A DNA stretch of 64,000 nucleotides from a virus (UHGV-0033546); one strand, 5' to 3'. Shown: positions 9,953 to 52,257, counted from the stretch's first letter. Notes: generated by a model from the sequence alone, not told the origin. Translations and numbers: made by a program.

Positions 9953-10516
9953 TTACCATTCCAATGCTAGTTTTTTGAGTTGTTTCTGTTCTTTTACATT
10001 CTTAGTCACTTCTTTTAAAAAATCATCCGTGACTAAACCTTTTAGTTCTTTTAATACTAAAGGAAGTTTTCCATTTTTAGTAAGAATTGATTTATAGTTA
10101 ATTGCATCATTTGTATTAACTTGATACCGTTTAGCAAGTAACTTAATAATCAATACTTCGGTAGAATCTTCAACCAGTTTTGCCCATTTACCATATCTTT
10201 TACCACGAGGAACTGCAGCCATCAGATAATTAAAATGAGCTTCATCACTTAATCCGGAACCGATTAAATTCATTGCATATACAGCTGGCATGCACTCCGG
10301 AAATTGTGATAATGCATTTTCAACCATGAATTTTGAATAATCTTTTTGAGCAATAGAGCATTTAGTTTTATTATTAATAGCTCCAATTATTTCAAAAAAT
10401 TCATTTTCAGATTTTTCCTTAAAAGAATCAGCAGCAGATTGGACAGCTGTCCAATCTTTTGAATACCAAGCAACTTGATGCTTGTTTAATTGAATATCAT
10501 CTTCAAATAAGCTCAT
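9953..10516 (-). CDS. 62: gp62 clamp-loader small subunit, 187 aa
   Basis: ATG at 10516 in TGATATG overlap with gene 44 stop; 187 aa; matches T4 gp62. Confidence 0.85.
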
Positions 10517-26842: not shown

Positions 26843-27190
26843 TTATAGCGTAATCCATTCTCGTATTGTCTGAGTTACTACACGTTCACGGGGCTCGACT
26901 AGTTCAACAGTCGGAACTGCATAATACCAGTCAGAATGGTAAGAACCTGAGCGAGTTTCATTTACGGAAACATGTACATTGTGTTTTGGACTAAAATAAA
27001 CACACTGACGATATTGGCATTTACCATCTTGCACCCAGTCTTCTATTTCGATAGGTTTAAGATAATCCGAAAAATCAAAATCATAGTTTTCTGAAAATGC
27101 ATCATGGTCTTCAATGATTTCATTCAGAACTGCATCAACATCGTAAATCATATTTACCCCAGTTTGACTATACAATCGCCATATTTCCAT
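26843..27190 (-). CDS. hypothetical protein, 115 aa
   Basis: Track ORF. Confidence 0.4.
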   Translation of the reverse strand: MEIWRLYSQTGVNMIYDVDAVLNEIIEDHDAFSENYDFDFSDYLKPIEIEDWVQDGKCQYRQCVYFSPKHNVHVSVNETRSGSYHSDWYYAVPTVELVEPRERVVTQTIREWITL

Positions 27191-27630: not shown

Positions 27631-27873
27631 TTATTCCTTAATTCCTAGTACTTGTTTAAAAGTCTCATCGTAATCAAGACTTTGGCCTGTTTGTTCTTTA
27701 TGTTTGTATATAATATCACTTACTTCTGATAGCATATTTTTATATGAACGAGTTAAAGCAGATTTAAGAACGCTGTATCTATCAGGAAATTTACCATGTT
27801 CATTATAATAAGCTATTGCTAATTCACGGACTGCCTTTTCAGCAGTCTCCATATATTCTTTACGCTTTGTCAT
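27631..27873 (-). CDS. hypothetical protein, 80 aa
   Basis: Track ORF. Confidence 0.45.
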
Positions 27874-28177
27874 TTTCTTCTCGGTTAAATCGGTGTTTGC
27901 AATGACGGCATTTATAACGAAGAATACTAGTCTGCCAATGAATTAATTGAACCTGTTCAGTACCGCATTCAGGACAATTAGGAACGTTTTTAGAAGCCCT
28001 TTCACGACGTTCAACCATAACCATAATAGCATCCCAGGCTGGAGGTTTAAAATCTAAATCATCACAACCATGAATCTTTCCACGCATTTCCAGATCGTCT
28101 TCTTCACCCGCTATAATAATTTTAATTAGACTGGAATTACTTGAAGCTGCAATATCTTCTAATAGACGCTTTTTCAT
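27860..28177 (-). CDS. zinc-ribbon protein, 105 aa
   Basis: CPECG...CRHCKH four-Cys ribbon. Confidence 0.45.
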
Positions 28178-29100
28178 TTCAATACCTCAATAGCATTACG
28201 TAAACCATTTGCTTTGGTGGTTAAAGCCTTAAGAACTTTGGTATGCTCTTCAATTTGTTTTTCAACTTCAATCAAACGAGCATTGAGATATTCGCGTTCT
28301 TCTTTCATAGTATCATTCCCATGATTGAATTTTGGCGTAGGTTTAAATTCGCTGGGGTCCTTTAACTTAATAACAAATTTAGTTTCAAACAGTGAAAGAC
28401 CATAATTCGTATTATCATCAAAGGATTCAACTACATCCATATTAGATAATAACTCACGCAAATTATAAGCCAAAGAACTAATAGTTTCATTGTGTTTATT
28501 AGCTTCGCGCGGTTTCATATACGGAAGATTTTTATATATCTCGTGCGGAGCACAAACAATAATTGACAATTCAAATTGTCCATTCTGGGATGATGGAGTG
28601 AATTTAGCAGTAACCCAGTCTTTTACATTCACATTAATAGTACGGTTATCACCATGACAAAACAGTCTACGAGAATGCTTAAAAAGCATATTAACGTTCT
28701 CATTAAATTCACTTGAAAACTCACTAGCGAATTTTTCTTTACTATTTTTAGAAAACCATTCTTCTAAATAAGTTCTTTTCACGTCATTAATAATATTAAA
28801 TGTAACAACACTAGCATTTGATATATTAGTCTCAATGTAGCTCGGATACATAAATTTTTTAACATTATTAACAGCTATCACAGAAGATAGTAATCGGGAA
28901 CGTTTGAACCACTCGAGCAAAGAACCAAGAGAATGTGAATACGCATTTTGTGTATCTTTACAAATATGGTTTTCCCATCCAATATAGTCTAAAAAATCAC
29001 GAAGAATATTATTGATTACTGCTCTGTGTCCTATCTGATAATTACGATGTTTAGTAATAAGACTGTCAAAATAATCAATATAATGTTTACGAGTTTTCAT
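28174..29100 (-). CDS. hypothetical protein with C-terminal coiled coil, 308 aa (paralog array member 1)
   Basis: ATG at 29100; C-terminal heptad-like helix; N-terminus MKTR... resembles array member 3. Confidence 0.5.
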   Translation of the reverse strand: MKTRKHYIDYFDSLITKHRNYQIGHRAVINNILRDFLDYIGWENHICKDTQNAYSHSLGSLLEWFKRSRLLSSVIAVNNVKKFMYPSYIETNISNASVVTFNIINDVKRTYLEEWFSKNSKEKFASEFSSEFNENVNMLFKHSRRLFCHGDNRTINVNVKDWVTAKFTPSSQNGQFELSIIVCAPHEIYKNLPYMKPREANKHNETISSLAYNLRELLSNMDVVESFDDNTNYGLSLFETKFVIKLKDPSEFKPTPKFNHGNDTMKEEREYLNARLIEVEKQIEEHTKVLKALTTKANGLRNAIEVLK

Positions 29101-29152
29101 ATTCTTCTCACTTGGTTAATGATTTATGCTCCAAGCCATCCTTGGCTTTAAA

Positions 29153-30154
29153 TTACTTAATTAACTGTAAAGCTTGTTCAAGACGATCCAGGCGATTAAC
29201 AGATTCTTCCCAAATCCTTTTAGCCTGTTCATATTCTTTTTGCGCTTTATTAGAAATTTCTAGAACTTCTTTATAAGCTTTTTCTAGTGCAATAACTTCT
29301 GGACGAATTTCTACTGGTTCAGGCGAATCGTCAAGATTATCCATTAGTTCCTCAAGGGTAGTTTCTTCTTTAGGAGTATTCACAATTTCATCACATTTTT
29401 GTTGGTAAATTTCTTTATCAGTCGGTGAATACGCACACTTTACTTCACGAAGACTAACTACAATTTTATATCCTTCCCAACCGCACATATTCTTAAAAGG
29501 ATAAGTATGAATATTTTCTACTGTTTCCATACATCCAAAAGCTGTCTCTAATTGATGAGTTATAGTGCTAGCAATTGAGAAAAATTTATTAATATTCTTT
29601 TGGTTAGCTTCTGGTGTAAAAAATTCATAATTCACAAAAATAGCTACTTTATTTTTATCAAGCTCGTATTCTTTTACGATAATCATATCAGAAGCTAAAG
29701 GATGAATTTGACGATAATCGCCATAGCATAATTTAGAAGCGGATTTTATAATTTGCTTCTTGAAAAGTCTGAAATTACTAACCCAACGACGAGTAAAAAT
29801 ATTCTCAGGGTCTTCTTTATTATTAAGATGATAAGAATTAACATCACCGAACCAATTATATCCTACTACATTTTTAGTTCGTTTAATTTCTTTCCCAAAT
29901 TTACCAAAAATATCCCGATTAACCAAATATGAAAGAAGACGAGACCCTTTAAAGGTTTCCTTAATATCATCTTTATCTGTATGACTAGAAATTTTACGAA
30001 CTTCATGAATAAATTTACTTGAAGAAACAATACTTACATCAGTATTATTGAGCCACTGATTGATAATAGAAAGAACACTATTCTGACTAGACATAGGTTT
30101 AACTTTATCATCAATAACGCTATTGAATGATTTGATATATTCGTTACGAGTCAT
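29153..30154 (-). CDS. hypothetical protein with C-terminal coiled coil, 333 aa (array member 2)
   Basis: ATG at 30154 with GGAG SD (track ORF starts 30205). Confidence 0.5.
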   Translation of the reverse strand: MTRNEYIKSFNSVIDDKVKPMSSQNSVLSIINQWLNNTDVSIVSSSKFIHEVRKISSHTDKDDIKETFKGSRLLSYLVNRDIFGKFGKEIKRTKNVVGYNWFGDVNSYHLNNKEDPENIFTRRWVSNFRLFKKQIIKSASKLCYGDYRQIHPLASDMIIVKEYELDKNKVAIFVNYEFFTPEANQKNINKFFSIASTITHQLETAFGCMETVENIHTYPFKNMCGWEGYKIVVSLREVKCAYSPTDKEIYQQKCDEIVNTPKEETTLEELMDNLDDSPEPVEIRPEVIALEKAYKEVLEISNKAQKEYEQAKRIWEESVNRLDRLEQALQLIK

Positions 30155-30211
30155 ATTAATCTCCTCAGTAGAAAGTAAGAACATTATACCACATCCTTGT
30201 GGCAAAGTAAA

Positions 30212-31216
30212 CTAGTTTAGTGCATTTAGTGCATTGTTCAGTTTAGAACGTTGTTTTGTCAGATTTTGAACCCTTGACTGTGCTTGTTCTAACACCTTTT
30301 CAGCTTCTAACATTTCATTAGTTGCTTTAACTAATTCATCATCTACTGCTTTAAGAGACTTCTCAATCGCATCGGCGTGCCATTTTTCTACAGGTTTAAA
30401 ATTTGAATTTTCAGTAGGAAGAAAACTCACTTTATTAAGTTTACATGCATCTATGTTACTTGAACTATACATCCAGCATTTAGGATCGTTTGATGAACAG
30501 TTAGTTTGGGGTTCAGGTTTTTTCTCTTGCGGGACTTCGTCCTTTCTCAAAAAATCGTATTTAAATGAAACGATCATATCAAGTTCATATGTTGTTGTGT
30601 CTAATTTAAATCGCTCAAAACGAGGTAAAATCTTAGACTGAACAGCGGCAACAACATCCATATACTTAAATGCTTCTGTCAACTGTGATTTAAGGCATTC
30701 ACAAATTGAAAGAGAATTTTTTGTATTAGGTTTAAAGCTAATTCGTGCAGTTCTATTATTTTCTTTTAATGGTCTTACTTCCATCTGAAGAGTATAACCA
30801 TCAAATTTCAGATTCTTTAAGTTAATATCAGAACCTTTTAATCGACTAGCTGTGGACAAAATTTGTTTTAGTTGTGTACGGAATAGAGCAATAAATCTCC
30901 ATTCAATACGATAATGATTTGGATTGAAAAATCCAGATGATAAATCAACCTTACTCTGACCAACACCTTGAACAAATAGAGGATTTTTATAATCAATAGT
31001 TTTACAGAAATCGGTGAGCTGCTCACGAGCAGTCATTTGTGTAATATACCCCGCTTTACTAAAATGACGTAACCATTCACTGCTATTCATATATTTAAAG
31101 TGAATATCATGATTAACTTTATCAGGGTCTAAATTATTTTGACACAAAAATGTCATAACATCACGAGTATAGCTGGCATTACGAACCATATCTTCAATTT
31201 GAGAACGAGTTTTCAT
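30212..31216 (-). CDS. hypothetical protein with C-terminal coiled coil, 334 aa (array member 3)
   Basis: ATG at 31216; similar length and C-terminal coiled coil. Confidence 0.5.
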   Translation of the reverse strand: MKTRSQIEDMVRNASYTRDVMTFLCQNNLDPDKVNHDIHFKYMNSSEWLRHFSKAGYITQMTAREQLTDFCKTIDYKNPLFVQGVGQSKVDLSSGFFNPNHYRIEWRFIALFRTQLKQILSTASRLKGSDINLKNLKFDGYTLQMEVRPLKENNRTARISFKPNTKNSLSICECLKSQLTEAFKYMDVVAAVQSKILPRFERFKLDTTTYELDMIVSFKYDFLRKDEVPQEKKPEPQTNCSSNDPKCWMYSSSNIDACKLNKVSFLPTENSNFKPVEKWHADAIEKSLKAVDDELVKATNEMLEAEKVLEQAQSRVQNLTKQRSKLNNALNALN

Positions 31217-31224
31217 GGTGTTCC

Positions 31225-31761
31225 TTAAGATTTAAGTAAATCAACAATTTTAATTAACTTTTCACGCTCAGATTTAGCTTTACTACTCAATCCAGATAGT
31301 CTGAAAATTTCATCATCATATTGTTGAATAGAAATATTCAGTTCTTCAATCTGTTTATTAAAATAATCAATTTGTTCAGAGTGTTTTTCGTTACTACGAA
31401 CTGGTACGGGTTTCGTAGGCAATTTAGTTGAACTAGATTCATCCGGGCGATAAATTAAAATACAACTTGAACCAATTGGGCATTTTGCACCAGATGAATA
31501 TTCCAATGTTCCAGATTCTTTTAAAACTTCAAAAGCTAAACAGAGATGATGCCCCATATTAACATAATCTGTAGAGCGAGCTCTGATGTAATAATCATCG
31601 CCACGAATACTAAATTTAAAGCATTTAAGGTCTTCTGTATTATTGGTCTTAAAAATCATTTGCTTATCTAGACCTTTAGCTAATCGAGCGCCTAATGCTA
31701 ATAATCGTCGCTGATTTTCCCACAAATCCGCAATCATTTGATCGAATGACAATTTCGGCAT
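31225..31761 (-). CDS. hypothetical protein with C-terminal coiled coil, 178 aa (array member 4)
   Basis: ATG at 31761 in TGATG overlap with upstream stop (track ORF starts 31830). Confidence 0.45.
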   Translation of the reverse strand: MPKLSFDQMIADLWENQRRLLALGARLAKGLDKQMIFKTNNTEDLKCFKFSIRGDDYYIRARSTDYVNMGHHLCLAFEVLKESGTLEYSSGAKCPIGSSCILIYRPDESSSTKLPTKPVPVRSNEKHSEQIDYFNKQIEELNISIQQYDDEIFRLSGLSSKAKSEREKLIKIVDLLKS

Positions 31762-32111
31762 CAGTCGACCATAAAGATCATAGCCTTTATTATAATTACG
31801 AAGGATTTCACTCGCGTTAATACGAGACAATGCTCCAATTTATTAAGGGCTTTCATAATGCGATTAGATAAACCCATTCCAGACCCATTTGTTCGCTGCA
31901 AATGTTTTTCTAATCCAAATCCAATATCAACTTTAAACTTATCTAAAATTTCTGCATGAACATCTCTGTCAATAACATTCAAATCCAAAGTTGGGTTAAA
32001 TCTATGAAAAAATTTATCTGGCTCTCCACGACGAAGTACAGTCCATTCATTCAATTTTTTATTAACTAAAGATTTAATTACTGCATTGACATTATTAATC
32101 ACTACTGGCAT
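31761..32111 (-). CDS. hypothetical protein, about 116 aa
   Basis: Track ORF 31761..32147; internal ATG at 32111 avoids overlap. Confidence 0.4.
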   Translation of the reverse strand: MPVVINNVNAVIKSLVNKKLNEWTVLRRGEPDKFFHRFNPTLDLNVIDRDVHAEILDKFKVDIGFGLEKHLQRTNGSGMGLSNRIMKALNKLEHCLVLTRVKSFVIIIKAMIFMVD

Positions 32112-32118
32112 ATTTTCC

Positions 32119-32526
32119 TCACTCAATTTCAATTTTACTAAATACATAGAATATGATTGAACAGACTACATAAGCGCCACACACAGATTGAACTAATACC
32201 ATTCCAAAGAACCAAACAATATTATCAAACAGTGTCTGTTTTACGTCGAAAGGACGTAAACTTACAGTAATATTATCGCCTTTTTCTATTGATGAATACA
32301 TCTCTGGTGAAATATATTCGCTAAATCTATAACCGTCTTTTAGTTCATATATGGCAATAAACGATAAACTAGACCCCTTTCCTTGTGTTCCTGTAATGGT
32401 ATTAACTACAGTAACATCATAATCTTTATAATGCATATAATCATTAATAGCATAATAACCATATGCAATCGCTATACATAAACAACATATCAATAAATTC
32501 AATCTTTTAATTATCAACTGTTTCAT
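32119..32526 (-). CDS. membrane protein, 135 aa
   Basis: N-terminal and C-terminal transmembrane helices. Confidence 0.45.
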   Translation of the reverse strand: MKQLIIKRLNLLICCLCIAIAYGYYAINDYMHYKDYDVTVVNTITGTQGKGSSLSFIAIYELKDGYRFSEYISPEMYSSIEKGDNITVSLRPFDVKQTLFDNIVWFFGMVLVQSVCGAYVVCSIIFYVFSKIEIE

Positions 32527-32581: not shown

Positions 32582-33109
32582 TTATGCGAGTACCGTCTTT
32601 AACCGTTCTTCAAACTTCCGAAGAGTATTTTGGCGTTCAGCTCTTTGCTTTTTGTAAGTTTCAATACGCTCTGAAATGAGAGTGTATCGTTCATTTACTG
32701 ATTCTTTCATAAAATCAGGAATTTCACGAGAAGCTTTAATCTCGTCAAATTTATCAATAACAGCTTGCTCTTCAGCAATTAAATTATCATACATTAAAAT
32801 ATCTTTCTTGATGAACTCAATATCTTCTTGAGTTACACGAGATAATTTAGATGCTTTATCCTTTTTGTACTGTTCGTTAGTATCACGAGACCAGTGTAAT
32901 GTACGATTTTTATTCGTATTTTTGTAAATTTCTACAATACCAATCTCATCAATAATAACGATCCAATTCCAACGTGATTTGTAAATTTGTCCTCCATCAA
33001 CAGTGATTTCACCTCCGATTGAGATGTCATTAAAGAACTTGCTTTGTGCTTCAGATTTAAATTTACCATCATTGTAATTTACCAAGTTGAAAATATCTTT
33101 AGCGTTCAT
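32582..33109 (-). CDS. hypothetical protein, 175 aa
   Basis: Track ORF with early promoter upstream. Confidence 0.5.
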   Translation of the reverse strand: MNAKDIFNLVNYNDGKFKSEAQSKFFNDISIGGEITVDGGQIYKSRWNWIVIIDEIGIVEIYKNTNKNRTLHWSRDTNEQYKKDKASKLSRVTQEDIEFIKKDILMYDNLIAEEQAVIDKFDEIKASREIPDFMKESVNERYTLISERIETYKKQRAERQNTLRKFEERLKTVLA

Positions 33110-33573: not shown

Positions 33574-34542
33574 TTATTTCAGAAGAGTAACCTCAGCGAT
33601 TTCTTCCCAACCGTTTTTGTCGGTCATAATAAAGTCAGCAAGATAAAGAGCAGTACGCAGTGAAACATTGCGTAAACGATTAACATTAACTTTCATCCAT
33701 GATAATGCTTTATAAGTTTCTTCATCAGAAAGACCGCGCTTTTGCATCATGTCAGTTGAAAGAATAACATCTTCAACCCTGACCATAATTTCTTCATTAG
33801 TGTGAACACCCAAATCTAAATAAACCGAGCGGGACACTAATGCTTGTAAATGTGGAGCAAGTTTAGTACCACGGTCTAATTCGCGGTCAATGTCAACGTT
33901 TGTGATAAAAACAATCGTTCCTTTAAATTCAAACTCACGCTCAATGCCTTTTTCTTCTAAGTAAGAAGACGCAGTGCTCCAGCAGACTTTACGGGTCTCT
34001 CCAGTGTCCAGAGCAGCTTTTAGAAGATTAAGAATGTCCATATCAGAGAAAACATCCACATCATCAATCAAAAGGACAGAATTCTCTTCACGATTATTCC
34101 AAAGCTGCTCATAAAGACCAATACCAGAGATTTTACCATTAATGCTTTTATATTCAATGTATCCAATATCATTTGCTTTATTTAAAGCTTTATCTAAAGA
34201 ATACGTTTTACCAATACCTGCCGCTCCTGAGATAATTAATGAACGAATATTTCCGTTAATAATACCATTCGTCATCATTCCCATAACATTAAATCTTTTA
34301 TTAATGCGGGTTTTCATATCTTCATATGATTCTTTAACTTCTTCAACTTTTACACCATCATATGAAATATCTGATTTGTAAACCCAAACACCGCGACGCT
34401 TACCGTCAATTTCAACAAAAACTTTACCATCTCCTTGTGCATCTACCGGAGCATTATCTGGGAACCATTCGCCTAAGAGCTCAAAAGTTCCAGAGATTTC
34501 TTTACCGAAGTAGATACCCTTATTGATAGTTACAGTTTTCAT
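33574..34542 (-). CDS. P-loop AAA-type ATPase, 322 aa
   Basis: Walker A GAAGIGKT and Walker B LLIDDVD; ATG at 34542 with GGAGAA SD (track start 34560 is GTG). Confidence 0.55.
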   Translation of the reverse strand: MKTVTINKGIYFGKEISGTFELLGEWFPDNAPVDAQGDGKVFVEIDGKRRGVWVYKSDISYDGVKVEEVKESYEDMKTRINKRFNVMGMMTNGIINGNIRSLIISGAAGIGKTYSLDKALNKANDIGYIEYKSINGKISGIGLYEQLWNNREENSVLLIDDVDVFSDMDILNLLKAALDTGETRKVCWSTASSYLEEKGIEREFEFKGTIVFITNVDIDRELDRGTKLAPHLQALVSRSVYLDLGVHTNEEIMVRVEDVILSTDMMQKRGLSDEETYKALSWMKVNVNRLRNVSLRTALYLADFIMTDKNGWEEIAEVTLLK

Positions 34543-45060: not shown

Positions 45061-45534
45061 TTATTTAAATGATTTGACGTACTGAACAGAACCTTTGCTA
45101 TTCACGAAAGCGATTTTACCATTTTTGTTATACATGGTAGCAGTACGCTGATAGCCATAAGTTTGCTTACCAGATTGATAACCAACTAATGCAAAATTAT
45201 CTTCGCCCATTTTATTCTGTTTAGCACGAATACGCTCATGACCGTGAGCCATAAGAACCTTAGCATCGCCAGTTGCAATGGATCTACGAGTTTTTTCATC
45301 TTCAACTGTATTAACAAAGTCGTCAAATGAATCAAATTTAGCATGAGATTTATTATACAGTTTTCCATCTACTGCATAATTATATCCCTGTACATCCATC
45401 TCAACTTCTGTACCATCATCCAATACAGCAGTGATTTTTTGACCTTTTTTAAATTTCAAAAGATCAGTAAAAGATTCAGCAATAATTTGAGAATTAATAG
45501 CTGCTTCAGTGATAAATTCTTGATATGTTTTCAT
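45061..45534 (-). CDS. internal-protein-like head protein with capsid-targeting leader, 157 aa
   Basis: N-terminus MKTYQEFITEA matches the T4 IP capsid-targeting sequence (cleavage expected after ...E-A); body unlike T4 IPII/IPIII by length. Confidence 0.6.
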   Translation of the reverse strand: MKTYQEFITEAAINSQIIAESFTDLLKFKKGQKITAVLDDGTEVEMDVQGYNYAVDGKLYNKSHAKFDSFDDFVNTVEDEKTRRSIATGDAKVLMAHGHERIRAKQNKMGEDNFALVGYQSGKQTYGYQRTATMYNKNGKIAFVNSKGSVQYVKSFK

Positions 45535-51235: not shown

Positions 51236-51311
51236 TGGTCGAGGCAGTAGGGATCGAACCTACGACCTAGGACTTAGAAGGTCCTTGCTCTTCCTTCTGA
51301 GCTATGCCCCG
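51236..51311 (-). tRNA. tRNA-Arg (anticodon UCU), CCA encoded
   Basis: Manual cloverleaf: acceptor CGGGGCA/TGCCTCG, T-arm GTAGG-TTCGATC-CCTAC, anticodon loop CUUCUAA. Confidence 0.85.
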
Positions 51312-51315
51312 TAAT

Positions 51316-51391
51316 TGGGGTGACCGATGGGAGTCGAACCCATGACTACGAGAATCACAATCTCGAGTTCTACCAACTGAACTACGGCCAC
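51316..51391 (-). tRNA. tRNA-His (anticodon GUG), CCA encoded
   Basis: Manual cloverleaf: acceptor GTGGCCG/CGGTCAC, D-arm GTTC-AGTTGGTA-GAAC, anticodon loop UUGUGAU, T-loop TTCGACT. Confidence 0.8.
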
Positions 51392-51505
51392 ATTAATACC
51401 TACTCCAACAATCAAGATGTCTTCACACGAAATTAAGAGAAGAATGATCAGTTCAACCCTTATAATCGCGTCAAGTAGATATTAATGTGACAGTTGTCAC
51501 AAATT

Positions 51506-51580
51506 TGGCGGACATGCATGGATTCGAACCATGGACCAATTGATTAACAGTCAACTGCTCTACCACTGAGCTACACATCC
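51506..51580 (-). tRNA. tRNA-Asn (anticodon GUU), CCA encoded
   Basis: Manual cloverleaf: acceptor GGATGTG/CATGTCC, anticodon loop CUGUUAA, T-arm CATGG-TTCGAAT-CCATG. Confidence 0.8.
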
Positions 51581-51584
51581 AAAT

Positions 51585-51671
51585 TGGTGGGGAGTGATGG
51601 AGTCGAACCACCCGAGTCGCAATGACAATGGATTTACAGTCCACACCGCTACCTCTACGGGATAACTCCCC
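51585..51671 (-). tRNA. tRNA-Tyr (anticodon GUA), type II with long variable arm, CCA encoded
   Basis: Acceptor GGGGAGT/ACTCCCC, anticodon loop CUGUAAA, 15-nt variable arm, T-loop TTCGACT. Confidence 0.75.
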
Positions 51672-51684
51672 CTAATTCATAATT

Positions 51685-51759
51685 TGGTGGCCCTGGGTGG
51701 AATTGAACCACCATCTGGCGATTATGAGTCGCTTGCTTGAACCTTCCAGCTACAGGGCC
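51685..51759 (-). tRNA. tRNA with anticodon CAU (Met, or Ile if lysidine-modified as in the T4 tRNA-Ile)
   Basis: Acceptor GGCCCTG/CAGGGCC perfect 7 bp, anticodon loop CUCAUAA, T-arm GGTGG-TTCAATT-CCACC. Confidence 0.8.
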
Positions 51760-51760
51760 T

Positions 51761-51836
51761 TGGTGCTGATTGACGGAATCGAACCGCCGACATCCTCATT
51801 ACAAGTGAGGTGCTCTACCTACTGAGCTAAATCAGC
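51761..51836 (-). tRNA. tRNA-Thr (anticodon UGU), CCA encoded
   Basis: Acceptor GCTGATT/AATCAGC, anticodon loop CUUGUAA, T-loop TTCGATT. Confidence 0.85.
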
Positions 51837-51841
51837 AAAAC

Positions 51842-51931
51842 TGGCGGAGGCGATAGGATTTGAACCTATGAGTCGCCGGAGCGACTGCCGGTTTTCAAGA
51901 CCGGTGCATTAAACCACTCTGCCACGCCTCC
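51842..51931 (-). tRNA. tRNA-Ser (anticodon UGA), type II, CCA encoded
   Basis: Acceptor GGAGGCG/CGCCTCC, anticodon loop CUUGAAA, long variable arm. Confidence 0.85.
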
Positions 51932-51933
51932 AG

Positions 51934-52007
51934 TCTCCATACAAGGATTTGAACCTTGGACCTCCTGATCCCAAATCAGGCGCTCTACCAAACTGAGCTA
52001 CACGGAG
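51934..52007 (-). tRNA. tRNA-Pro (anticodon UGG), CCA not encoded
   Basis: Acceptor CTCCGTG/TATGGAG, anticodon loop UUUGGGA; 3' end is 2 nt from the tRNA-Ser 5' end. Confidence 0.85.
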
Positions 52008-52017
52008 TAAATTAAAT

Positions 52018-52091
<74 letters not shown>

Positions 52092-52096
52092 AAATT

Positions 52097-52183
52097 TGGT
52101 GCGAGAAGTGGGACTCGAACCCACAAGGAAATCATTCCGCAGCATTTTAAGTGCTGTGCCTTTACCAATTTGACCATTCTCGC
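52097..52183 (-). tRNA. tRNA-Leu (anticodon UAA), type II, CCA encoded
   Basis: Acceptor GCGAGAA/TTCTCGC, anticodon loop CUUAAAA, long variable arm. Confidence 0.85.
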
Positions 52184-52184
52184 G

Positions 52185-52257
52185 CTGGGAATAAAGGACT
52201 CGAACCTTTGCATCCTGGAATCAAAATCCAGTGCCTTACCAACTTGGCTAATTCCCA
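52185..52257 (-). tRNA. tRNA-Gln (anticodon UUG), CCA not encoded
   Basis: Acceptor TGGGAAT/ATTCCCA, anticodon loop UUUUGAU; 3' end is 1 nt from the tRNA-Leu 5' end. Confidence 0.85.

Follow-up and report, generated by a model that had tools for sequence, protein, structure and literature searches.

Four strongly diverged tandem genes of T4-like phages, nrdC.3 to nrdC.6, as candidate members of one anti-defence family

The subject of this work is a tandem array of four minus-strand genes, nrdC.3, nrdC.4, nrdC.5, and nrdC.6, in a 64,000-nucleotide (nt) stretch of viral DNA (UHGV-0033546; hereafter the window, to whose full length all coordinates refer), the genome being that of a Tequatrovirus, a T4-like phage. 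The closest described system is T4 nrdC.5, classed in the literature as an early gene. A T4 clone lacking accessory genes was unable to infect ECOR17, and the deletion of dsr1 from the host restored infection (PMC9391042); in MG1655 with dsr1, infection was regained by supplying just T4 nrdC.5 on a plasmid (PMC9391042; Srikant, Guegler & Laub, eLife 2022). The third gene of the array is orthologous to this anti-Dsr1 gene (DUF7235/PF23882), and the other three share with it the domain order and the C-terminal helix, although they sit in other families (PF26897 and PF26899; phrog_1435 and phrog_2257). A second term of comparison is DSAD1, reportedly described by Garb et al. in 2022 as a phage inhibitor of DSR2, a SIR2-domain defence protein that depletes nicotinamide adenine dinucleotide (NAD+), and thought to bind it directly; we know of no coiled-coil tail in DSAD1. 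Direct binding is also the working model that we propose for NrdC.5, by analogy and with no relationship of sequence or fold being claimed; unlike NrdC.5, DSAD1 targets DSR2 and not Dsr1, and it does not belong to a tandem paralog family. Lastly, the array resembles other T4 clusters (the dmd-tifA-adfA “anti-TA (toxin–antitoxin) island”, the internal proteins IPI/IPII/IPIII, and pin-gp49.2-nrdC.1...nrdC.8), the genes of which are dispensable, clustered, variable, directed against one host system each, and quickly lost or amplified. However, those clusters consist mostly of unrelated small proteins, whereas here four neighbours are homologous, in what would be an expansion of two-module proteins of ~300 amino acids (aa).

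On balance, we regard it as probable that the array represents a modular anti-defence family of four ancient, strongly diverged tandem paralogs, belonging to a superfamily confined to T4-like phages. What is new here is the family-level link that unites three database families; the genes themselves are long-known T4 open reading frames (ORFs), and, since one role has already been published, no new kind of system is involved. A literature search by gene names and Pfam accessions found no description of nrdC.3-nrdC.6 as one family.

A nucleotide search with a 3.6-kb query matched 507 phage records, 462 of which aligned at a coverage of at least 80% with 80-95% identity; nearly all of them belong to Tequatrovirus, with Escherichia, Shigella, and Yersinia as hosts. 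The nucleotide identity to T4 and its relatives is 93%, with the same gene order. The window is indeed colinear with the annotated regions of KMB42 and T4 (NC_000866), where endonuclease VII, pin, nrdC, nrdC.1, and nrdC.2 are followed by nrdC.3-nrdC.6 and then by nrdC.7 to nrdC.11, and where nrdC.3 is annotated with 308 aa, nrdC.4 with 333 aa, nrdC.5 with 334-342 aa, and nrdC.6 with 295 aa. Judging from this identity and from the order between nrdC.2 and nrdC.7, the four minus-strand ORFs of the window are the orthologues of T4 nrdC.3, nrdC.4, nrdC.5, and, in part, nrdC.6. The first three are located at 28174-29100 (nrdC.3; 308 aa; phrog_1435, expect value (E) 4e-99; syntenic with T4 and KMB42), 29153-30154 (nrdC.4; 333 aa; phrog_1435, E 5.7e-165), and 30212-31216 (nrdC.5, DUF7235; 334 aa; PF23882, E 3.4e-108; phrog_2351), all on the minus strand. 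The original prediction, made from the DNA sequence without database searches, had described four consecutive ORFs of 308, 333, 334, and 178 aa, and these lengths and coordinates are correct. In many GenBank records the whole block bears the label “thioredoxin”, which Pfam and PHROGs searches do not support and which, on that sequence evidence, is an annotation spill-over from nrdC.

The fourth ORF had been taken as a gene, and 31761 as the end of the array, and on this point the picture has to be modified. In relatives nrdC.6 has 295 aa; here it is split into an N-terminal fragment of 116 or 128 aa and a C-terminal one of 178 or 201 aa, depending on the start considered. The C-terminal fragment (31225-31830, minus; 178 aa from the ATG at 31761, with the frame open back to 31830) matches positions 109-303 of the 303 of phrog_2257, and the upstream 128-aa ORF (31761-32147) matches positions 1-91; the N-terminal fragment itself (31761-32111, minus), if counted from the conserved ATG at 32111 and not from 32147, where the 128-aa ORF starts, has 116 aa, and its end is out of frame. 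Where T4 and KMB42 have a run of four A (AAAA; column 323 of the DNA alignment), the window is one A short, the site reading AAA at 31839-31841 (minus). In the assembled sequence, as far as the alignment can tell, the 178-aa ORF is the C-terminal piece of a frameshifted nrdC.6 and not a whole gene, and the true array therefore comprises four genes of ~300-335 aa, reaching ~32111. The shift is reproducibly assembled, since three contigs, drawn from two assembly sources (Logan and ENA) and up to 167,017 bp long, carry exactly these two truncated products. As for T4, nrdC.6 of the reference NC_000866 carries a different 1-nt deletion near the 3' end (alignment column 827; ~10067-10130), which yields a 275-aa protein without the coiled-coil tail, and the laboratory T4 annotation in the HIDEN-SEQ preprint gives nrdC.6 as full-length (891 bp); this discrepancy is due either to a reference error or to a stock difference.

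The paralogy of the four proteins escapes the usual comparisons. BLASTP among them was too insensitive, as it detected only nrdC.3 versus nrdC.4 (24.5% identity over 269 residues, E 4e-5). PHROGs places nrdC.3 and nrdC.4 in phrog_1435, nrdC.5 in phrog_2351, and nrdC.6 in phrog_2257, while the homologues fall into Pfam PF26897 (nrdC.4, with 63/63 homologues carrying it), PF23882/DUF7235 (nrdC.5), and PF26899 (nrdC.6), so that each database keeps three separate families for the array. The nrdC.5 protein matches PF23882 over its full length with 362 bits, the gathering cutoff being 30 bits; nrdC.3 stays below this threshold (13.3 bits, C-terminal helix only), and nrdC.4 and the nrdC.6 fragment gave no match to it. 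By these sequence comparisons, nrdC.3, nrdC.4, and nrdC.6 appear as distant paralogs of DUF7235 lying outside that Pfam family.

Family alignments were built from 45 syntenic loci of viral contigs and compared with hhalign. The nrdC.3 and nrdC.4 families aligned with each other at 97.7% (E 1.5e-12), and the merged nrdC.3+4 profile aligned with nrdC.5 at 78-86% (E 5e-6 to 2e-5) over ~235 colinear columns, which take in the tail as well as the helices of the core. What lies between nrdC.2 and nrdC.9 in other T4-like genera is usually just one protein of 309-393 aa. An intermediate profile made of these syntenic proteins, free of nrdC.3-6 sequences, matched nrdC.3/4 (96.0%, E 3.8e-9), nrdC.5 (96.9%, E 1.7e-10, 241 columns), and nrdC.6 (97.1%, E 5.3e-11, 214 columns), versus an E of 0.2-0.8, at 0.3% or less, for the controls (seven unrelated families of the same locus and three families of the nrdC region). 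Because coiled coils can give spurious similarity, the last 62 residues were cut from every sequence; the trimmed intermediate profile still matched nrdC.3/4, nrdC.5, and nrdC.6 (94.9%, 92.3%, and 92.9%; E 4.5e-8, 5.6e-7, and 3.8e-7, respectively), as did trimmed nrdC.3/4 and nrdC.5 directly (82.5%, E 9.9e-6), the controls giving an E of at least 0.5. As for structure, a Foldseek search of the nrdC.4 model in BFVD retrieved an nrdC.3 protein (E 2e-8) and the nrdC.6 protein of JS10 (E 4.9e-5, probability 1.0). The flexible tail keeps the template modelling (TM) scores against these nrdC.3 and nrdC.6 entries down to 0.3-0.4. The further matches are uncharacterised proteins of ~300-370 aa from T4-like phages of Acinetobacter, Pectobacterium, Erwinia, Serratia, Klebsiella, Yersinia, and Aeromonas.

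These data allow us to weigh the idea that the four are unrelated ORFs whose coiled-coil-like tails are due to composition or convergence, with no paralog array at all. One could invoke in its favour the single BLASTP pair, the failure of a HMMER profile of nrdC.3+4 to reach nrdC.5 and nrdC.6, the three Pfam/PHROGs families, and the fact that the adjacent nrdC.8 is heptad-tailed too, though unrelated. However, the profile-profile links persist once the tails are cut, Foldseek ties the nrdC.4 model to both nrdC.3 and nrdC.6, the order of secondary-structure elements is equal in the two models available, and the motifs are colinear; already disfavoured, this idea now seems to us extremely improbable. 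Overall, we consider paralogy well supported and highly probable for nrdC.3, nrdC.4, and nrdC.5, and supported to a somewhat lower degree for nrdC.6. The divergent paralogs with a conserved architecture proposed in the original prediction are in agreement with the profile-profile and Foldseek results, and the outcome that was to speak against them, a lack of any detectable homology or fold similarity, did not occur.

Some related observations can be added. The nrdC.4 model also retrieved two proteins of the Acinetobacter phage Acj61 with consecutive accessions, E5E4A1 (E 4.9e-8) and E5E4A2 (E 2.8e-6), which hints at an independent tandem duplication in another genus, their adjacency being deduced from the accession numbers only. 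nrdC.8 was considered as a fifth member on account of its heptad tail and was discarded, as it has no homology to the array (E 0.2). In a database look-up, the nrdC.4 protein with exactly the sequence of the window was assigned to a 90%-identity cluster in which the representative (P0105) and the named members are nrdC.5 proteins; nrdC.4 and nrdC.5 cannot be aligned at such an identity, and the assignment probably stems from an indexing error between adjacent genes.

The nrdC.3 and nrdC.5 proteins both open with MKTR, as had been noticed, and the two starts are encoded by the same 12 nt, ATGAAAACTCGT; nrdC.4 starts with MTR. Since ATGAAAACTCGT is the only DNA stretch repeated among the paralogs, the duplication must be old. 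The same N-termini raise another possibility, namely that the proteins behave like the T4 internal proteins, being packaged in the capsid and injected together with the DNA, because M(K)TR.(E/H)(Y/F)I resembles MKTYQEFI(A/T)E. Indeed, an internal virion protein of the window (45061-45534, minus, phrog_3155) starts with MKTYQEFITE, a canonical capsid-targeting sequence, and a faint likeness to it can be recognised in MKTRKHYI, MTRNEYI, and MKTRSQIE, as well as in MITREEFIAS of an nrdC.5 relative (P0121). The T4 prohead protease cleaves at an I/L-x-E motif. However, no such motif follows the N-terminus of nrdC.3, nrdC.4, or nrdC.5, which do not qualify as carriers of a capsid-targeting sequence; the N-terminal motif is missing from nrdC.6, nrdC.5 is classed as an early gene, and the N-terminus of nrdC.4 is predicted to be a packed helix. 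Moreover, no start tripeptide is commoner in the window than MKT, with which 6 of 105 ORFs begin, and the resemblance is therefore probably due to chance. Packaging thus appears to us highly implausible.

As regards the architecture, the best-register a/d heptad score of the C-termini was reached by only 2, 4, 0, and 2 of 5000 shuffles for nrdC.3, nrdC.4, nrdC.5, and nrdC.6, respectively. When 86 ORFs of the window were ordered by a crude heptad score of the C-terminus, those of the array took places 1, 2, 5, and 6. AlphaFold2 models, made for nrdC.4 and nrdC.5, contain a single uninterrupted terminal helix at residues 285-332 (48 residues) and 276-333 (58 residues), respectively, and the a/d periodicity extends over at least five heptads within a predicted continuous helix. 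The heptad-rich terminal helices of the original prediction are hence borne out. On the DNA (minus strand throughout), they correspond to 28177-28302 in nrdC.3 (~residues 267-308; heptad score and shared terminal motif), 29156-29302 in nrdC.4 (residues 285-333; AlphaFold2, heptad score, and a near-invariant alignment), 30215-30391 in nrdC.5 (residues 276-334; AlphaFold2, heptad score, and a regular 3-4 hydrophobic repeat), and ~31228-31392 in nrdC.6 (heptad score). The tails share the terminal motif L-x-x-A/S-[LIVM]-x-x-L-K/N, a related form of which (e.g., KLFAALSALK) occurs in every superfamily member, including those of distant genera, and not in the non-member neighbours; within nrdC.4, no part is better conserved across genera than the tail. 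The neighbouring nrdC.8 (32582-33109, minus, 175 aa) also ends in a heptad helix (12/5000 shuffles).

In the nrdC.4 model (predicted local distance difference test, pLDDT, 79.9), N-terminal helices (residues 1-84), the first of which is well packed in the folded domain (pLDDT 93), are followed by an alpha/beta core (88-235), a low-confidence linker (240-284), and the terminal helix; the order of the elements is the same in the low-confidence nrdC.5 model, whose sole confident part is residues 281-334 (block pLDDT 61-85). In the superfamily alignment, only 20 columns are conserved across clusters. Apart from one Arg/Lys and one Gln, all of them are occupied by hydrophobic residues, Gly, or Pro; none of these 20 columns holds a conserved catalytic-type Asp, Glu, His, Cys, or Ser. 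A Foldseek search of the PDB gave no match below an E of 0.06, and PDB sequence profiles gave nothing. The fold resemblances have low scores, are spread over functionally unrelated families, and show 3-16% sequence identity; as judged from the model, they represent a generic two-layer alpha/beta likeness and not membership. A “tail-protein decoy” had also been considered and is unsupported, with no match to a PDB fold or sequence profile.

The ratio of nonsynonymous to synonymous substitution (dN/dS) was estimated by the Nei-Gojobori method (NG86) on nine Tequatroviruses, by gene and by region. It amounts to 0.29 for nrdC.3, 0.21 for nrdC.4, 0.20 for nrdC.5, and 0.14 for nrdC.6, versus 0.008 for endonuclease VII, 0.03 for nrdC.8, 0.05 for nrdC.1, 0.06 for nrdC.10, and 0.09 for nrdC.9. 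The regional values range from 0.05 to 0.46, the lowest being that of the nrdC.4 tail, and the least constrained regions are the N-terminal 60 residues and the linker of nrdC.4 and nrdC.5 (~0.35). The constraint on the array genes is relaxed: they evolve faster than their conserved neighbours, yet under net purifying selection. These figures, gene-wide (0.14-0.29) as well as in every region (below 0.5), give no support to the diversifying selection suggested in the original prediction. Between genera, identity drops to 22-27% for nrdC.5, 39-52% for nrdC.4, and ~50% for nrdC.6, whereas nrdC.8, nrdC.10, nrdC, and endonuclease VII keep 67-88%.

The nrdC.3 gene exists as two alleles among phages that are otherwise ~90% identical (the window versus loci L003, L005, L008, and L012): residues 61-265 are 59-69% identical, with a synonymous divergence (dS) of 0.6-0.7, the first 60 residues are 95% identical, and the tail 88%. 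Since the divergence is accompanied by a high dS, the sequences suggest ancient alleles or cassette exchange rather than positive selection acting in place. The copy number is lineage-specific: four genes in Tequatrovirus, three (without nrdC.3) in VR20/25/26-type and JS98/JS10-type phages, and mostly one elsewhere. Broken or rearranged copies are frequent and are not limited to nrdC.6 of the window. In vB_EcoM_G8 (L012/L021, 6971-8003) nrdC.4 is split into 193 and 158 aa, in T2 a 155-aa fragment of nrdC.4 is annotated, in P0120 residues 145-266 of nrdC.5 are fused to residues 125-308 of nrdC.3 with nrdC.4 deleted, and nrdC.6 of the Shigella phage Sf25 carries an internal tandem duplication of 83 aa, for a total of 378 aa. 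Taken together, the genes evolve fast, exchange alleles, and break repeatedly, the last being the behaviour of dispensable genes under fluctuating selection, with no evidence of pervasive positive selection.

This pattern bears on a further model, according to which the paralogs, instead of each having a target of its own, would act jointly, e.g., on Dsr1, as parts of one hetero-oligomeric complex assembled through their related C-terminal helices. A terminal motif and a heptad register common to all the paralogs would be expected in such a case, and so would the strong constraint on the helix of nrdC.4 (dN/dS 0.05, the most constrained part of that gene) and the constant co-occurrence of nrdC.4, nrdC.5, and nrdC.6 in the E. 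coli T-even genera sampled. However, most other T4-like genera are single-copy, which implies that one copy can function alone; plasmid-borne nrdC.5 by itself rescued the T4 deletion mutant; and single members are broken in viable isolates (the window, T2, vB_EcoM_G8, and the nrdC.5::nrdC.3 fusion). We therefore consider a joint complex improbable.

Coming to the function, the nrdC.5 protein of the window is 90% identical to T4 NrdC.5 and occupies the same position. Other genes of the surroundings have been linked to defence: Gp49.2, a T6 family member, inhibits OLD (PMC13096335), nrdC.1 inhibits Septu, and bas37_0203 of phage KarlGJung inhibits Druantia type III (bioRxiv 10.1101/2025.11.20.689424). 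In the window, an ORF of the gp49.2 family is located at 26843-27190 (minus, phrog_2294) and nrdC.1 at 27631-27873 (minus), and bas37_0203 shares a 90%-identity cluster with the nrdC.8 protein. The segment 26.2-33.1 kb (pin, gp49.2, nrdC.1, nrdC.5, and nrdC.8) looks like a dense anti-defence island. On E. coli K-12 none of the four array genes is essential, hits having been obtained in 96-100% of their TA sites (bioRxiv 10.1101/2025.11.20.689424).

It might be argued that these are indeed paralogs but that all except nrdC.5 serve more generally in host takeover or as accessory factors (e.g., in host metabolism, proteostasis, or nucleic-acid transactions) and are not immune inhibitors. No defence-related phenotype is on record for nrdC.3, nrdC.4, or nrdC.6, which show no significant depletion in one HIDEN-SEQ differential comparison, and net purifying selection with a dN/dS of 0.14-0.29 is typical of ordinary accessory genes as well. 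On the other hand, the sole characterised member is a counter-defence gene, as are the flanking gp49.2, nrdC.1, and nrdC.8; the lineage-specific copy number, the two deeply diverged nrdC.3 alleles, and the frequent breakage fit genes engaged in an arms race; and all four are dispensable on K-12. In our opinion general factors are rather unlikely, and we prefer the anti-defence family.

In this anti-defence reading, each protein opens with short N-terminal helices, which are followed by an alpha/beta core that is conserved, a linker that varies and is probably disordered, and an amphipathic C-terminal helix of ~45-60 residues. The helix is most likely a coiled coil, through which the protein is predicted to oligomerise, and an oligomeric state would match the oligomeric nature of many defence proteins. 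Since the conserved columns contain no catalytic-type residues, the family would be made of non-enzymatic binders, the core and the linker representing a fast-evolving recognition domain mounted on an oligomeric scaffold and blocking a host immune protein. In the case of nrdC.5, published genetics with the T4 allele show that the SIR2-type host defence Dsr1 is neutralised. Duplication and cassette exchange would then have generated versions aimed at different defence proteins or at different variants of them. A bolder proposal, which we put forward as tentative and somewhat doubtful, is that nrdC.3-nrdC.6 form an unrecognised superfamily of modular immune antagonists, in which a constant coiled coil would serve for oligomerisation or as an effector, while a swappable central domain would set the defence sensor to be blocked; it would follow that one or more of nrdC.3, nrdC.4, and nrdC.6 act against a defence system different from Dsr1 and that the two deeply diverged nrdC.3 alleles differ in target specificity.

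Several points weigh against the anti-defence reading. The functional data for the array concern nrdC.5 only and consist of a single complementation experiment with the T4 allele, and no conditional phenotype for nrdC.3, nrdC.4, or nrdC.6 was found in the literature. The host-target binders of the original prediction fit the anti-Dsr1 genetics of this one member; the direct binding of a defence protein, like oligomerisation and the anti-defence roles of nrdC.3, nrdC.4, and nrdC.6, is something that we infer. A dN/dS above 1, sought gene-wide and by region on the nine DNA sequences, was found nowhere, and positive selection is therefore not demonstrated. The nrdC.5 model, obtained from a shallow alignment, has a pLDDT of 44.5 and was too poor for a fold search, so that its identity of fold with the others is drawn from the profile-profile comparison only. 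Direct comparisons of nrdC.6 with nrdC.3/4 or nrdC.5 are not significant by themselves (E 0.002-0.09), and its link to the family hence depends on the intermediates and one Foldseek match. A further weak point, which concerns the paralogy, is that the HMMER search with the nrdC.3+4 profile gave, among 1.84 billion representatives, 10 matches, none of them to nrdC.5 or nrdC.6; the relationship lies beyond the reach of HMMER, and the family hardly extends outside T4-like phages.

Although T4 serves as the reference among lytic phages, the databases distribute these four genes of ~300 aa among three unrelated families. Their paralogy with the anti-Dsr1 gene makes nrdC.3, nrdC.4, and nrdC.6 specific counter-defence candidates that are cheap to test, and it offers a family-level handle on how Dsr1 is neutralised. 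A modular design with a constant tail and a variable core could explain how T-even phages retarget their inhibitors through duplication and cassette exchange. The presence, absence, and allele type of these genes, including natural knock-outs such as the frameshifted nrdC.6, may also serve as markers in phage therapy and host-range prediction.

A few other features of the window deserve mention. The spacer between nrdC.5 and nrdC.4 harbours a promoter-like site (30183-30211, minus) of the sigma-70/T4-early type, with TTTACT, a 17-nt spacer, and TG-TATAAT; it has 10/12 consensus matches and an extended -10 and is a pattern match only. In the promoter and terminator scan, the number of sites did not exceed the shuffle expectation, and only this site upstream of nrdC.4 stood out. 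Next to the variable island, nrdC.10 (33574-34542, minus) codes for a highly conserved P-loop/AAA-type ATPase (weak Pfam matches to AAA_14, AAA_22, and nSTAND); it is 65-100% identical across T4-like genera, with a dN/dS of 0.06. Lastly, 11 transfer RNA genes are recognised by Rfam at 51239-52257 (minus), one of them barely above the threshold (30.2 bits), coinciding with a stretch at 50-52 kb that is richer in guanine plus cytosine.

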